Of a DNA stretch of 57,525 nt, positions 379 through 47,661 are shown piece after piece. Source of the DNA: Ignavibacteria bacterium (GTDB taxonomy: Bacteria; Bacteroidota; Ignavibacteria; Tepidaquicellales; OLB5); assembly GCA_049516635.1 (NCBI GenBank), contig JBEKSX010000003.1, positions 1-57,525 of the forward strand, given 5' to 3'. Position numbers and translations under genes: made by a program. The notes beneath the pieces were generated by a model. The model had not been told where the DNA came from, did no database searches, and saw only the letters and a list, made by a program, of their open reading frames with translations. How positions within the stretch are numbered: the stretch's first letter is position 1; each line of letters opens with the position of its first letter.

Positions 379-443
379 ACCCCACTCGGCTAATGCCGTT
401 TCTTCCCTTTCCCTCCTTCGGACGGGCAGGCTGCTAAGGGGAG
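379..443. repeat. CCCCTT/AAGGGG-type palindromic repeat with nested 23-nt hairpin (411-433)
   Basis: Reverse complement reads CCCCTTAG[CAGCCTGCCCGTCCGAAGGAGGG]AAAGGG; same architecture at 47605-47661. Confidence 0.6.
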
Positions 444-617
444 TCAATACCTGAAAAATGCCCTAAAATCCCCGCAGAATTATGAATTTATCAAATATAC
501 TACATTAAACTGCATAATTCAAGGCAAAAATTTATATACACTGTGAAAAGCAGGGGATTTGAATAGAATTTATGAGCTAAAAGTATTCCGCGGGAGTTTG
601 AGAAGGTACTTAAGAAA

Positions 618-1001
618 TCATTTATAGCTTACAATAGTTACGTTTGCCGAATCTACATAATACCCGGTGAGCAAAGGATAGGAAAATGTTTTAAACTGCT
701 CACCTGAGGGAATTATCGTATCAACCCATTGAACATTAATGATTGAATCAAGGTAAGATTGATTAAAATCAGTGGCTCTATAATCAAATCTCAGAACTAT
801 ATTGGTAGCATTAGCCTGTCCGGAATTCTTTAATTTGACCTGAAAATCAACGCCCCAGCCGGTTATCCAGTTATGAGAAAAGAAATAAGTTACGCTTAAG
901 ACCGGTACTTTGGGAGGCGGGTTAGTTGGCGAAACAGTGTTATCTTTACAGGCTGTTAAAGTAACCAGAACAATAAAGACAAAGTAAAATATTTTTTTCA
1001 T
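618..1001 (-). CDS. hypothetical lipoprotein (CARDB/Ig-like beta fold possible)
   Basis: MKK + hydrophobic stretch + LTAC lipobox, Pro-rich linker, VKLKNSG..ATNI pattern. Confidence 0.75.
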   Translation of the reverse strand: MKKIFYFVFIVLVTLTACKDNTVSPTNPPPKVPVLSVTYFFSHNWITGWGVDFQVKLKNSGQANATNIVLRFDYRATDFNQSYLDSIINVQWVDTIIPSGEQFKTFSYPLLTGYYVDSANVTIVSYK

Positions 1002-1186
1002 TATTTTCTTGAGTAGTTTCCCGATGCTCCAATTTGATCGTATTTTTAACGGGATAGACTAACTTAAAGGTATAATTTTATTATCTTATTTATTAAATAT
1101 AAGATATTATTTCAGTACTTTAAATTTATTTAATTGACTGCGGGAGCGGAGGGGCTCAGGGGTAATGGGATACATCAATGTCCTTT

Positions 1187-1222
1187 CCGCCTGCCTGCTG
1201 CATGCAGGAGAGACTCTGACGG
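1187..1222. repeat. palindromic repeat with nested CCTG-tagged hairpin
   Basis: CCGCC[TGCCTGCTGCATGCAGG]AGAGACTCTGACGG; removing the bracket leaves hairpin CCGCCAGAG-A-CTCTGACGG. Confidence 0.5.
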
Positions 1223-1233
1223 TATCGGAAACT

Positions 1234-1701
1234 TCAGAATCCTTTTAATGCGATACCCAAACCAATTTCAACACTAAGGATCAAGACTAACCCTGTAACT
1301 ACAATGATTGTTTTTGCAACCTGCACTCTAGTCATTTCTATTTTGACGGACTTAATGTTTTTTAGTTCGATCACTCGTTCTTCGGATGATATTTTTTTCA
1401 TATTATCAGTAAGGATAGTTGTATCTTTGTTCATGTATAATATGACATTAGGTATGCCTTTATAAATGATTTCGAACCCGGGGTTATTGTTCTTTAAAGA
1501 AATTTTTTCACCGTTCTTCATAACTACGCTCAGAATTTCGTAATCGGTCCTTGAGGGCAGTTGTGATTCATTTACATTTTCTATTTTGGTTGTGGTGCAG
1601 CCGCCAAGACACAATATGAAGCTGAAAAGTACTATACAAAGTACAGGCGTGAACCGGCGGTTTGAGGCAATTTTTTGAATAATATTATATTTGTTTGACA
1701 T
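1234..1701 (-). CDS. hypothetical lipoprotein with C-terminal hydrophobic helix
   Basis: AAGGAG RBS, hydrophobic N-region ending LGGC, C-terminal TM-like segment. Confidence 0.75.
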   Translation of the reverse strand: MSNKYNIIQKIASNRRFTPVLCIVLFSFILCLGGCTTTKIENVNESQLPSRTDYEILSVVMKNGEKISLKNNNPGFEIIYKGIPNVILYMNKDTTILTDNMKKISSEERVIELKNIKSVKIEMTRVQVAKTIIVVTGLVLILSVEIGLGIALKGF

Positions 1702-44180: not shown

Positions 44181-44264
44181 GTATAGAGGAATATATAACA
44201 TATATAATCCGTTATAAAAAATAACAATCGAATAAGTTTTATAATAATCTATTAAGAGGAAATA

Positions 44265-46244
44265 ATGGAAAACAAAGATCTAAAAAAGAAAATAGAACCG
44301 GAGGATGACGAAAAAGTTAACGGTAACGGCTTATCGGGTAATGGTTCCGGTAAAAAAGAATTCCTTCCTAACAGTAAAAAAGTCTATGTAAAAGGTATTA
44401 TCCATGAAAATATTAGGGTTCCGTTCAGGGAGATCGAACTAACCCCAACCAGGCTCCCGGACAGTAGCATAGCGGTTAACAAAGCTCTCAGAGTCCACGA
44501 TACAAGCGGATTGTGGGGTGATGAAAAAGTTCAATGTGATATAAAAGATGGTTTAACGCTAATAAGAGGGGAGTGGATAAAATCCCGCGGTGATGTGGAA
44601 GAATATGAAGGAAGAGAGGTGAAACCAGAAGATAACGGATATCTCTCAATTGGCGGCGAATTATTTGAAGGATTAAAAAGAGACGGCAAGGAGACGGAAC
44701 AATTCCCCGGGAAAAAAAGAAAAGTATTGAAAGCGAAAACGGGGATGAACGTTACACAGATGCACTACGCTAGAAATGGAATCATTACTCCCGAAATGGA
44801 GTACATTGCTATACGAGAAAATATGGGACGCGAAAAAGCGGTTGACTTTTCGCTGAAGAATAAAACCCGGAACGGGCTCGACTGGCAGCATAAAGGTGAG
44901 TCGTTCGGGGCTAACCTGCAGGATTTTATTACACCGGAATTCGTGAGGAAAGAGGTTGCAGAGGGAAGAGCTATCATTCCTTCGAACATCAATCACCCCG
45001 AATCCGAACCGATGATAATAGGAAGGAATTTTCTCGTGAAGATAAATGCCAACATAGGGAATTCCGCCGTTGCTTCTTCGATAGAAGAAGAAGTTGAAAA
45101 AATGAGATGGGCAACTAAATGGGGAACAGATACAGTGATGGACCTTTCCACCGGAAAGAATATACATGCAACGAGGGAATGGATAATCAGAAATTCACCT
45201 GTGCCCATAGGAACAGTACCGATGTACCAGGCGCTTGAAAAGGTCGGAGGCAAAGCGGAAGAGCTGACATGGGAGATATTCCGCGATACAATGATAGAGC
45301 AGGCGGAACAGGGAGTGGATTATTTCACCATACACGCGGGAGTTCTTCTAAGGTACATACCGCTTACAGCTAACCGTTTATGCGGAATTGTATCACGTGG
45401 AGGAAGCATTATGGCGAAGTGGTGCCTCGCCCATCACAAGGAAAGCTTTTTGTATACGCACTTCAGAGATATGTGCGAGATCATGAAGACCTATGATGTT
45501 GCATTCTCTCTCGGAGACGGGTTACGTCCCGGTGCAATAGCAGATGCGAACGATGAAGCACAGTTCGCAGAGTTATATACGCTCGGTGAGCTGACCAAGA
45601 TTGCATGGGAAAAAGATGTACAGGTTATGATCGAAGGACCGGGACATATCCCTATGCAAATGATAAAAGAAAATATGGATCTCGAATTAAAACATTGTTA
45701 TGAAGCACCGTTCTATACTCTGGGACCGCTTACTACCGATATTGCTCCGGGTTACGATCATATCACAAGCGCGATTGGCGCTGCTATGATAGGATGGTTC
45801 GGGTGCGCGATGTTATGCTATGTAACCCCGAAGGAGCATCTTGGCCTGCCGAATAAGAAAGATGTGAAAGATGGTGTGATTGCATATAAGATAGCTGCTC
45901 ATGCAGCTGATCTTGCAAAGGGACATCCCGGTGCACAAATGAGAGATAATGCATTATCTAAAGCAAGGTTTGAATTCAGATGGGAAGACCAGTTTAATCT
46001 ATCGCTTGATTCCGAAACGGCAAGAGAGTTTCATGATGAAACTTTACCGGCAGAAGGAGCTAAGCTCGCTCACTTCTGTTCGATGTGCGGACCGCATTTC
46101 TGCTCTATGAAAATTACAGAAGATGTCAGAAAATATGCAAAGGAACACGGACTGGGCGAAGACGAAGCGATCAAAGCAGGCATGGAAGAAATGAGCAAGG
46201 AGTTTATACAATCCGGAGCTGAAGTATATAATAAATTTAAATAA
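44265..46244 (+). CDS. thiC: phosphomethylpyrimidine synthase ThiC
   Basis: [40 protein letters not shown]. Confidence 0.97.
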
Positions 46245-46266
46245 GACATAATAGCTGTTCGATAAT

Positions 46267-47394
46267 ATGGCTGAGAAGAAAGTAGTTATCATAGGCGGCG
46301 GAATCATCGGCTTATCCGTTGGATGGCAGCTTTTACGTAAAGGAATCGAGACCGAAATTTTTGAACGCGGTGAAGCTGGGAAGGGTGCGGGCTGGGTTGC
46401 CGCAGGCATGCTTGCTCCCGAGGCTGAGCTGGGTTTCGAGGAGATGAGGTTATTTGATCTCTGCAAGAAGAGCTTACTATTATACCCTGGATTTGTAGAA
46501 GAGCTTACTGAAGACAGCGGTCTTGAAGTGAAGCTCGACAATTGCGGCTCTTTGCTCGTGGGATTTGATCGCGATGATAATGAGCGTCTCAGAAGACAGT
46601 TCGTTTTCAGAGAAAGCGCAGGATTACCGGTCGAGTGGCGGAGCGGTTCTGAAGCACGCGAACTGGAGCCGCTGCTTTCCCCAAAATGTACAGGAGCTAT
46701 CTGGATACCGGATGATGCTCAGGTTGATAACCGAGCTATGTTACATGCATTGAAAACTGCTTTTCAATTGAAAGGTGGTATTCTTCATGAGTATTCCCTA
46801 GTAAGTTCTATAAAAACTAAAAATGGAAGGATAACTGGTATTATAACCGAGGGAGAAGAATTAAGTTTTACGGATGTGATCATAGCCGCGGGCTCCTGGT
46901 CAAGACAGATAGAAGGAATTCCGGATAATCTGCTTCCGCCGGTTCGTCCCGTAAAAGGACAGATCATTTCATTAAAAATGAATGATGACGTGAGGCTGAC
47001 CCGTTCTATACGTGCACTGGATGTTTATTTTGCACCTAAGAGCGATGGGCGGCTTGTACTGGGTGCAAGCGTTGAGGAAATGGGTTTTGATATAAATCCG
47101 ACTGCCGGAGAAATATTCCGCCTGCTCGAAAGAGGCTGGGAAACAGTTCCTTCCATATATGATTTGCAGATAGAGTCCATTGATGTGGGACTCAGACCCG
47201 GGAGCCGTGACCATGAACCGATCATAGGCGATTCATATATCGATGGACTGTATTTTGCTACAGGTCATTACCGTAACGGTGTACTTTTAACACCCATAAC
47301 TGCATATGAACTTTCAAATTGGATCGCAGAAGATAAGCCATCAGAGATATTAAAGAACTTTCAGTTATCAAGATTTTATAAGGAGGTTGTCTAA
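46267..47394 (+). CDS. thiO: glycine oxidase ThiO
   Basis: IIGGGIIG FAD motif, AAGML.P, PVKGQ, GHYRNGVLL; thi context. Confidence 0.92.
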   Translation: MAEKKVVIIGGGIIGLSVGWQLLRKGIETEIFERGEAGKGAGWVAAGMLAPEAELGFEEMRLFDLCKKSLLLYPGFVEELTEDSGLEVKLDNCGSLLVGFDRDDNERLRRQFVFRESAGLPVEWRSGSEARELEPLLSPKCTGAIWIPDDAQVDNRAMLHALKTAFQLKGGILHEYSLVSSIKTKNGRITGIITEGEELSFTDVIIAAGSWSRQIEGIPDNLLPPVRPVKGQIISLKMNDDVRLTRSIRALDVYFAPKSDGRLVLGASVEEMGFDINPTAGEIFRLLERGWETVPSIYDLQIESIDVGLRPGSRDHEPIIGDSYIDGLYFATGHYRNGVLLTPITAYELSNWIAEDKPSEILKNFQLSRFYKEVV

Positions 47395-47600
47395 TGAAAA
47401 TAAAAGTGAACGGGGAAAAACAGACTTTGCAAGAACAGATGAACCTCTACGATTTTCTGAACCTTCAATTGAACGGAGAGGATACAAAAGGAATTGCAAT
47501 TGCGTTGAATTTCAATATCATCCCAAGACAGAAATGGGAAACAACATTTATAAACGAAGACGATGAGATAGAGATCGTTCACGCAGTGCAGGGAGGATAA
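47394..47600 (+). CDS. thiS: sulfur carrier protein ThiS
   Basis: IKVNGE start, C-terminal VQGG. Confidence 0.95.
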
Positions 47601-47604
47601 GATA

Positions 47605-47661
47605 CCTTGTCCCCCTTTACAGCCTGCCCGCTTTCGAGCGGGAAAGGGGGATAGGGGGGTT
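47605..47661. repeat. CCCCCTTT/AAAGGGGG palindromic repeat with nested 23-nt hairpin (47620-47642)
   Basis: CCCCCTTTA[CAGCCTGCCCGCTTTCGAGCGGG]AAAGGGGGATAGGGGG between thiS and thiG. Confidence 0.65.

Follow-up and report, generated by a model that had tools for sequence, protein, structure and literature searches.

Short leader-plus-hairpin inserts nested within other repeats of an Ignavibacteria genome: a likely family of very small mobile DNA

The window analysed here is a stretch of 57,525 nucleotides from an Ignavibacteria bacterium (assembly GCA_049516635.1, contig JBEKSX010000003.1, our contig C3). Three of its sites carry a short tagged hairpin placed inside another palindrome. The genome is a 2.9 Mb draft of 136 contigs with 39% GC and a completeness of 97.7%; the public sequencing runs that contain it are mostly peat metagenomes, and no RNA dataset is listed among them. 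A first-pass annotation had noticed the three CCTG-tagged hairpins, and all three are where it placed them; however, their lengths, their boundaries and two of the restored hosts had to be revised. We find that the inserts belong to a genome-wide family of leader-plus-hairpin units, which are likely non-autonomous mobile DNA and likely among the smallest mobile DNA pieces known. Within the window there are no matches to Rfam families and, as the earlier annotation had also concluded, no enzyme gene that could serve the unit.

Boundaries were placed by joining eight flanking bases from each side at 49 offsets and searching for the joined sequence elsewhere in the genome. Among 70 candidates, chance matches included, 24 have an exact empty copy at one boundary, with AG as the first bases of the insert and its last base one short of the stem's end; at every other offset the number is seven or fewer. 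Because this peak falls at a single offset, the A-type inserts are 21 nucleotides long rather than the 23 first proposed, and the empty copies assign the flanking C and the last G to the host. For both A-type copies the host is indeed a CCCCTT..AAAGGG hairpin, with the insert in its loop. The restored host cores are CCCCTTTAC^GAAAGGGG, with 33 empty copies genome-wide, and CCCCTTAGC^GAAAGGGG, with 16, in place of the CCCCCTTT-A-AAAGGGGG suggested at 47620. The copy at 412-432 is decayed and folds no better than shuffled sequence (z -0.02). A de novo scan for filled and empty pairs was swamped by chance at the level of one empty copy, and only its matches with at least two empty copies were used.

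The third insert, a B-type unit, can equally be placed at 1190-1208, with a G at both ends; in B-type units the pairing base on the 3' side may belong to the insert or to the host. This unit is one change away from a near-palindromic subtype dominant in the relatives G002, G006, G012 and G024. A host CCGCCAGAG-A-CTCTGACGG at 1187-1222 had been proposed for it and found no support. The actual host belongs to a family ending GAGAGACTC(T/G)GA, of which we found eight copies in the genome, five empty and three filled.

Table 1. Inserts, their host repeats and neighbouring genes in the window (the caret marks the insertion point)
Feature	Position	Strand	Description
Host composite repeat	376..445	-	CTCCCCTTAGC^GAAAGG.., then AAACGGC..GCCGAG module; loop interrupted at C^G; 16 empty-form copies
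A-type insert, 21 nt	412..432	-	AG-CCTG leader and CCCG..(A)GG hairpin; last pair closed by host G at 411
Host palindrome	1169..1226	+	..GTCCTCT(T/G/A)C^GAGAGACTC.. family; decayed left arm
B-type insert, 19 nt	1189..1207	+	G-CCTG and CCTGC..GCAG hairpin; one-base slide possible
thiS	47394..47600	+	Left neighbour of the insert at 47621..47641; context only
Host repeat	47609..47661	+	CCCCCTTTAC^GAAAGGGGG and G-rich tail; core with 33 empty copies
A-type insert, 21 nt	47621..47641	+	Intact 6-bp stem; closed by host G at 47642
thiG (thiazole synthase)	47741..48520	+	Right neighbour of the insert at 47621..47641; context only

Genome-wide, a strict search yields 86 copies of the unit, against 3-7 in ten shuffles; the A pattern has 48 matches and its reversed control none. 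Chance similarity or an assembly artefact is extremely improbable as an explanation. Loose patterns do match often in high-GC DNA, and chance would account for about five of the 86 strict copies. However, the counts refute chance as the source of the family, and contigs from the independent runs X12 and X13 span the 47.6-kb site with its insert.

The strict copies are 19-23 nucleotides long. CCTG, first taken as the tag of the family, is the commonest form (41 of the 86) but is not fixed: CTTG occurs 18 times, CCAG 14, CCCG 7, CTAG 4 and CTCG 2. The base preceding the insert, left free in the search, is C in 68 copies and T in 8. In 52 of 53 cases the first base of the stem is paired by the base 3' of the insert (C-G 49, T-A 3), the outer pair having been left free. 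The junctions are C^A on the left and G^G on the right, with C^G as the target, and they remain constant when the tag changes; at A-type targets the step is C^G, less often T^G. Target-site duplication is absent in the A type and amounts to at most one ambiguous G in the B type. An exact empty copy of seven plus seven flanking bases exists for 35 of the 86 copies and for 13 of the 36 clusters into which the flanks fall. The units are thus inserted as clean blocks of leader plus hairpin without target duplication.

Sister families of micro-inserts with exact empty sites also occur (with leaders of 11 or 8 bases or with a TCCGAAGG-type hairpin of 20-21 bases; G000:C15, C88, C89, C36, C42, C41, C64 and C80), and several of their stems are closed by a host base. 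The thiS-thiG spacer (window 47601-47740; loci L025-L042) is a repeat hotspot, whose repeat types differ or are absent in 18 same-family loci.

Among the hosts are repeats found beside DUF559, Ssn-like GIY-YIG and Y1 genes of this genome (the repeat at 47609-47661 is of the type beside DUF559 genes), a tRNA-Asp remnant, and the unit itself in either orientation. Empty sites were reconstructed for 48 A-type copies, namely the 63 with a preceding pyrimidine less 14 flagged in open reading frames (ORFs) and one truncated. Their median fold is -6.6 kcal/mol, compared with -1.9 kcal/mol for 1500 random intergenic Y^G sites (Y being a pyrimidine), and 36 of the 48 fold at -4 kcal/mol or below, compared with 21% of the random sites. 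In 35 of the 48 the cut falls within the host loop or on its border, with an unpaired base on one side or a position after the closing pair into the loop. A distinct tagged mini-element family enriched in pre-existing hairpins, as originally proposed, is therefore borne out. Hairpin targeting and survival only in dispensable repeats are not separated by these data, and copies also lie in simple tandem repeats and, in frame, in a protein tail. The filled and empty paralogues suggest, at the level of sequence, that the units are mobilised in trans.

Outside this genome the A pattern is rare, with at most six matches in any of 150 other genomes of the class. About 11 of 151 class genomes are rich in the B-type pattern, whose distribution is patchy even within a genus; one B subtype has 72 matches in G012 as compared with 3-7 in five congeners. 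The main B-type form is uniform in sequence and occupies many hosts, simple tandem repeats among them. In two genera (L703:571 in G006 and L715:2696 in G012) an identical B-type insert occupies the same step just upstream of the gene for ribosomal protein L27, either as an old insertion that the two share or as the result of repeated hits. A scan of GTDB genomes returned at least 80 loci, many of them chance matches in high-GC DNA. Among the 80 listed, 22 are by eye nested in another repeat; they come from Calditrichota, Patescibacteria, Armatimonadetes, a Defluviitaleaceae genome and others. In G063 (L169-L173) six secreted-type proteins carry an in-frame 18-base copy close to the C-terminus, and two paralogues are empty. 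The unit therefore recurs in several phyla, in lineage-specific bursts, and near-identical units are found in distant phyla. A palindromic relative is present in 55 viral stretches. Two further patterns were set aside: all 80 loci listed for a loose viral pattern look like noise, and a second hairpin pattern has just three matches at a GC fraction of at most 0.52 among 80 loci listed.

Many copies have also spread passively through copying of the host repeat, since the largest flank cluster, which chains at least two unrelated hosts, holds 30 of the 86. Host replication and repair, through template switching, fragment capture at nicked hairpins or gene conversion, might paste the unit with no dedicated enzyme, the unit then surviving where it is harmless. 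This passive spread is in keeping with such an account, as are the near-ubiquity of the candidate GIY-YIG nuclease discussed below and the absence, in the loci surveyed, of a gene family consistently flanked by free units. However, unrelated hosts share only one or two junction bases, which is not enough for copying driven by homology; the boundary is exact to the base; near-identical units in distant phyla and loads that differ at least 10-fold between congeners also speak against it. We regard host repair as the sole agent as rather unlikely.

No small nuclease gene in this genome is flanked by free units, and no gene family is consistently so flanked in this genome, at 20 close element pairs or in 135 viral and 80 GTDB loci. 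The ORFs between the 20 pairs are housekeeping genes; those beside units in the viral and GTDB loci encode phage structural and unnamed proteins, with no nuclease in the 14 largest clusters. The first-pass annotation had pointed to HUH nucleases (RAYT/IS200 type) and to DUF559 genes flanked by the CCTG repeats, and neither lead found support, since free units flank none of the Y1 and DUF559 genes in this genome. Its seven Y1 matches are flanked by other repeats, and near one Y1 gene a single unit lies 138 bases off, nested in another hairpin. A classical GTAG-tagged repetitive extragenic palindromic (REP) sequence is present in the window at 1817-1841 on the plus strand. As a near-identical copy flanks the Y1 transposase gene G000:C39:13912-14253, a canonical pair of REP and REP-associated tyrosine transposase (RAYT) coexists with the CCTG units.

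Two unit-bearing Patescibacteria drafts have no Y1 gene and carry small GIY-YIG genes beside tRNAs. A profile was built from an alignment of seven such small tRNA-adjacent proteins; the family has a Pfam GIY-YIG match, and the solved structures it matches are UPF0213 and SLX1. We then compared five gene families across 141 Patescibacteria-class genomes, of which 35 are unit-rich and 46 unit-free. The tRNA-docked, SLX1-like GIY-YIG family of about 80 amino acids correlates with unit load at rho 0.47 and is found in 33 of the rich and 26 of the unit-free genomes. The corresponding values are rho 0.26 (27 and 23) for four-helix-bundle genes, rho 0.19 (24 and 26; partial rho 0.09) for Y1 and rho 0.00 (6 and 7) for DUF559; Ssn-type genes, counted by hand, occur in 4 and 3. 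Put the other way, 29 of the 35 rich genomes are without DUF559, 31 without an Ssn-type gene, 11 without Y1 and two without the GIY-YIG gene. This association effectively removes DUF559 and Ssn, disfavours Y1 and leaves GIY-YIG standing.

An HUH Y1 transposase of the TnpA-REP/RAYT class would move the unit by peel-and-paste, with CCTG as its guide tetranucleotide. The layout is indeed REP-like, with a four-base tag at the hairpin foot, no target duplication and a purine after the cut, and the seven Y1 matches would supply an enzyme. Under the guide rule, as given in the available text of PMC8266576, cutting at C^A or C^G is expected from a tag ending in TG; the left junction of the A type, C^A, agrees with this. 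However, the right junction G^G is off the rule and the junctions stay constant when the tag changes; the Y1 genes here have other repeats at their sides, and the rich Patescibacteria without a Y1 match include two with 76 and 54 unit matches. We judge this explanation quite improbable.

The likeliest candidate enzyme is the SLX1-like GIY-YIG protein, because it is near-constant in rich Patescibacteria genomes and its cassettes carry the same hairpin cores; it stays a candidate only, because it is also common in unit-free genomes. In this genome the protein has 81 amino acids (G000:C26:365-610), and the 15-base hairpin core of its cassette is identical to that of dispersed A-type units. Of 30 cassette loci taken from the window's class, two were unreadable and 28 were scored by eye. 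A tRNA copy with a (T/C)CCG..CGG hairpin is present in 24 of these, a long GCCTG-type hairpin at the end of a tRNA-Ser in three, and neither in one. The hairpin-bearing cassettes include those of nine of nine genomes that have no match to the dispersed pattern. The long tagged hairpin of the G155 cassette differs by one compensatory base pair from a 31-nucleotide unit dispersed in the present genome, and G155 itself has no match to the short unit pattern. In CCTG-poor genomes a search for dispersed cassette hairpins gave 61-216 matches versus 15-42 in the control per strand, with a pattern that is too loose and 15 loci read. Cassettes also occur in tandem, with 13 copies about 300 bases apart at G119:C2:365027-368832 and five copies 382 bases apart at G054:C19:516155-517916. 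On G000:C2, C12, C19, C23, C58 and C72 there are partial copies of tRNA genes that contain GC hairpins but lack a GIY-YIG motif within 600 bases. Gene-less copies that bear hairpins are possibly footprints of lost cassettes or free targets.

Another, unrecognised enzyme, or an RNA-templated route through a reverse transcriptase, is an unlikely source of the inserts in our estimation. Three rich genomes without a GIY-YIG match leave room for one. Among filled A-type sites that lie between co-oriented genes, 20 run with transcription and 7 against it, a lean that the empty hosts (19 and 17) do not show. B-type units, moreover, resemble the anticodon arm of tRNA-Val or tRNA-Asp plus three bases, and from this likeness their origin in such an arm is possible. 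A tRNA-Val gene matched the broad unit pattern (compare G000:C62:7863-7938 and the tRNA-Asp genes in L613, L615, L618 and L620). However, the strand lean is weak and comes from few, non-independent copies, and no other shared nuclease- or recombinase-like protein was found when the present proteome was compared with about 240 of the 800 kb of a unit-rich Patescibacteria genome.

Our preferred reading, held tentatively and with rather less than even confidence, is that the unit is cut from single-stranded DNA in trans by the tRNA-docked GIY-YIG protein and sealed by host repair. The hairpin of the unit would form on single-stranded DNA, an intermediate that we infer. The small GIY-YIG protein would bind it and, by analogy with SsnA, cut five or six bases upstream of the stem. 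The cut piece would then be taken up by a nicked host hairpin, at a cut whose following base can close the stem, and host repair would presumably join the ends.

Several observations weigh against this reading. GIY-YIG enzymes are known as cutting and not as joining enzymes, and we know of no joining activity for the fold. The gene is not sufficient, being present in the 26 unit-free Patescibacteria genomes counted above, and G119, G141 and G148 hold 10-19 copies of it with 0-2 units. Conversely, G050, G223 and G293 are unit-rich and have no GIY-YIG match. In the window's own class it fails to set rich genomes apart, occurring in 10 of 11 rich and 103 of 140 other genomes (113 of 151; p 0.29), and in the Patescibacteria the four-helix-bundle control also correlates with unit load. 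The p-values of the association are overstated, because the genomes are related drafts whose completeness is not established, and repeats dropped during assembly would inflate the correlation between unit and gene. The majority of cassette hairpins stand in place of a tRNA arm and carry no CCTG tag. Of 50 tRNA genes here, ten have a hairpin-bearing partial copy, and a GIY-YIG motif lies within 600 bases in just two cases; as the other eight have no such gene nearby, hairpins may simply be drawn to tRNA copies. The empty host alleles that the earlier annotation had expected in orthologous thiS-thiG spacers did not appear, as the 18 same-family loci hold unrelated repeats or none. Metagenomic thiG loci (80) reach at most 75% identity, and in a close relative in run X10 the whole 141-base spacer is exchanged for 158 other bases. 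Neither an excision product nor a circle junction was seen, and reads over 15 kb of contig C80 show no 19-22-base deletion among the indels listed.

For the movement of 20-base repeats, an enzyme has been partly reconstituted in the case of REPs, and none is known for elements of the small dispersed repeat (SDR) type. The present genome offers base-exact boundaries, a Y^G step with a host-closed stem, and a short list of candidates that includes one 81-amino-acid GIY-YIG protein. Should that protein cut and help to insert the unit, it would provide a non-HUH, scarless route of single-strand insertion and a very small DNA tool, and would account for short peptides inserted in frame in proteins of these bacteria; failing that, the family is an ordinary-looking but undescribed repeat parasite. 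A broader reading, which we hold to be possible but doubtful, is a cross-phylum class of 19-31-base mobile DNA, the orphan hairpin of GIY-YIG cassettes, with the nuclease acting as a single-strand transposase and the unit parasitising all repeat systems. Such a class would be smaller than any element of known mechanism and would insert at hairpin loops by one-base target pairing, in hosts that include protein-coding tails.

REPs and their paired form, the REPIN, are the closest well-known systems; GTAG- and CGTC-tagged repeats are associated with TnpA-REP (RAYT) in the accessible parts of PMC3733652, PMC6006769, PMC8266576 and PMC3116915, and a few REP families are reported within other palindromes (PMC3733652, in the part available). 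Like REPs, the unit is a short, GC-rich, multi-copy, extragenic stem-loop of 20-odd bases with a short tag at its 5' foot. In contrast, its tag is CYHG and not GTAG/GTGG or CGTC ('CCTG' occurs 0 times in the portions of PMC3733652 and PMC6006769 at hand), it occurs as a singlet of 19-22 nucleotides with exact empty sites and not as an inverted doublet, none of its junctions reads C^T, it flanks no Y1 gene, and it parasitises other REP-type families. It also lacks the combination of terminal inverted repeats and target duplication of miniature inverted-repeat transposable elements.

The small GIY-YIG protein SsnA binds a hairpin that flanks its own gene and cuts single-stranded DNA a few bases upstream, according to the available portion of PMC11893778 (Chenal et al. 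2025). Common to that Ssn/NTS system and ours are a small single-domain GIY-YIG gene flanked by a dispersed hairpin and an oriented leader plus hairpin. Ssn belongs to cd10448, whereas our candidate is docked to tRNAs and has UPF0213 and SLX1 as its nearest solved relatives. The Ssn-like genes of this genome are flanked not by the unit but by GTCATT-type repeats, and in one of these repeats a unit is nested; GTCATTCC-type repeats beside Ssn-like genes are hosts of the unit. In the part of PMC11893778 consulted, no insertion activity is reported for Ssn.

Elhai and colleagues are said to have described, in 2008, SDRs of Nostoc of about 20-27 nucleotides that nest in tandem repeats and in themselves and have no known enzyme. 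The available text of PMC4390886 describes a cyanobacterial SDR5 inserted precisely in HIP1 (SDRs also in PMC2884548, likewise in part). The unit resembles SDRs in its length of about 20 bases, its precise insertion in other repeats without duplication and its self-nesting. It differs in occurring in other phyla and in spreading far more widely, a comparison made by description only. No published description of the unit family was found, in a search that left out most subscription journals and all supplements (for example Table S1 of PMC6006769 and the SRM lists of PMC11893778). The family is thus REP-like in its working but departs from REPs in tag, doublet and RAYT flanking, follows an Ssn/NTS-like logic and behaves like an SDR; new here are the exact boundaries, the target step and the association test across five gene families.

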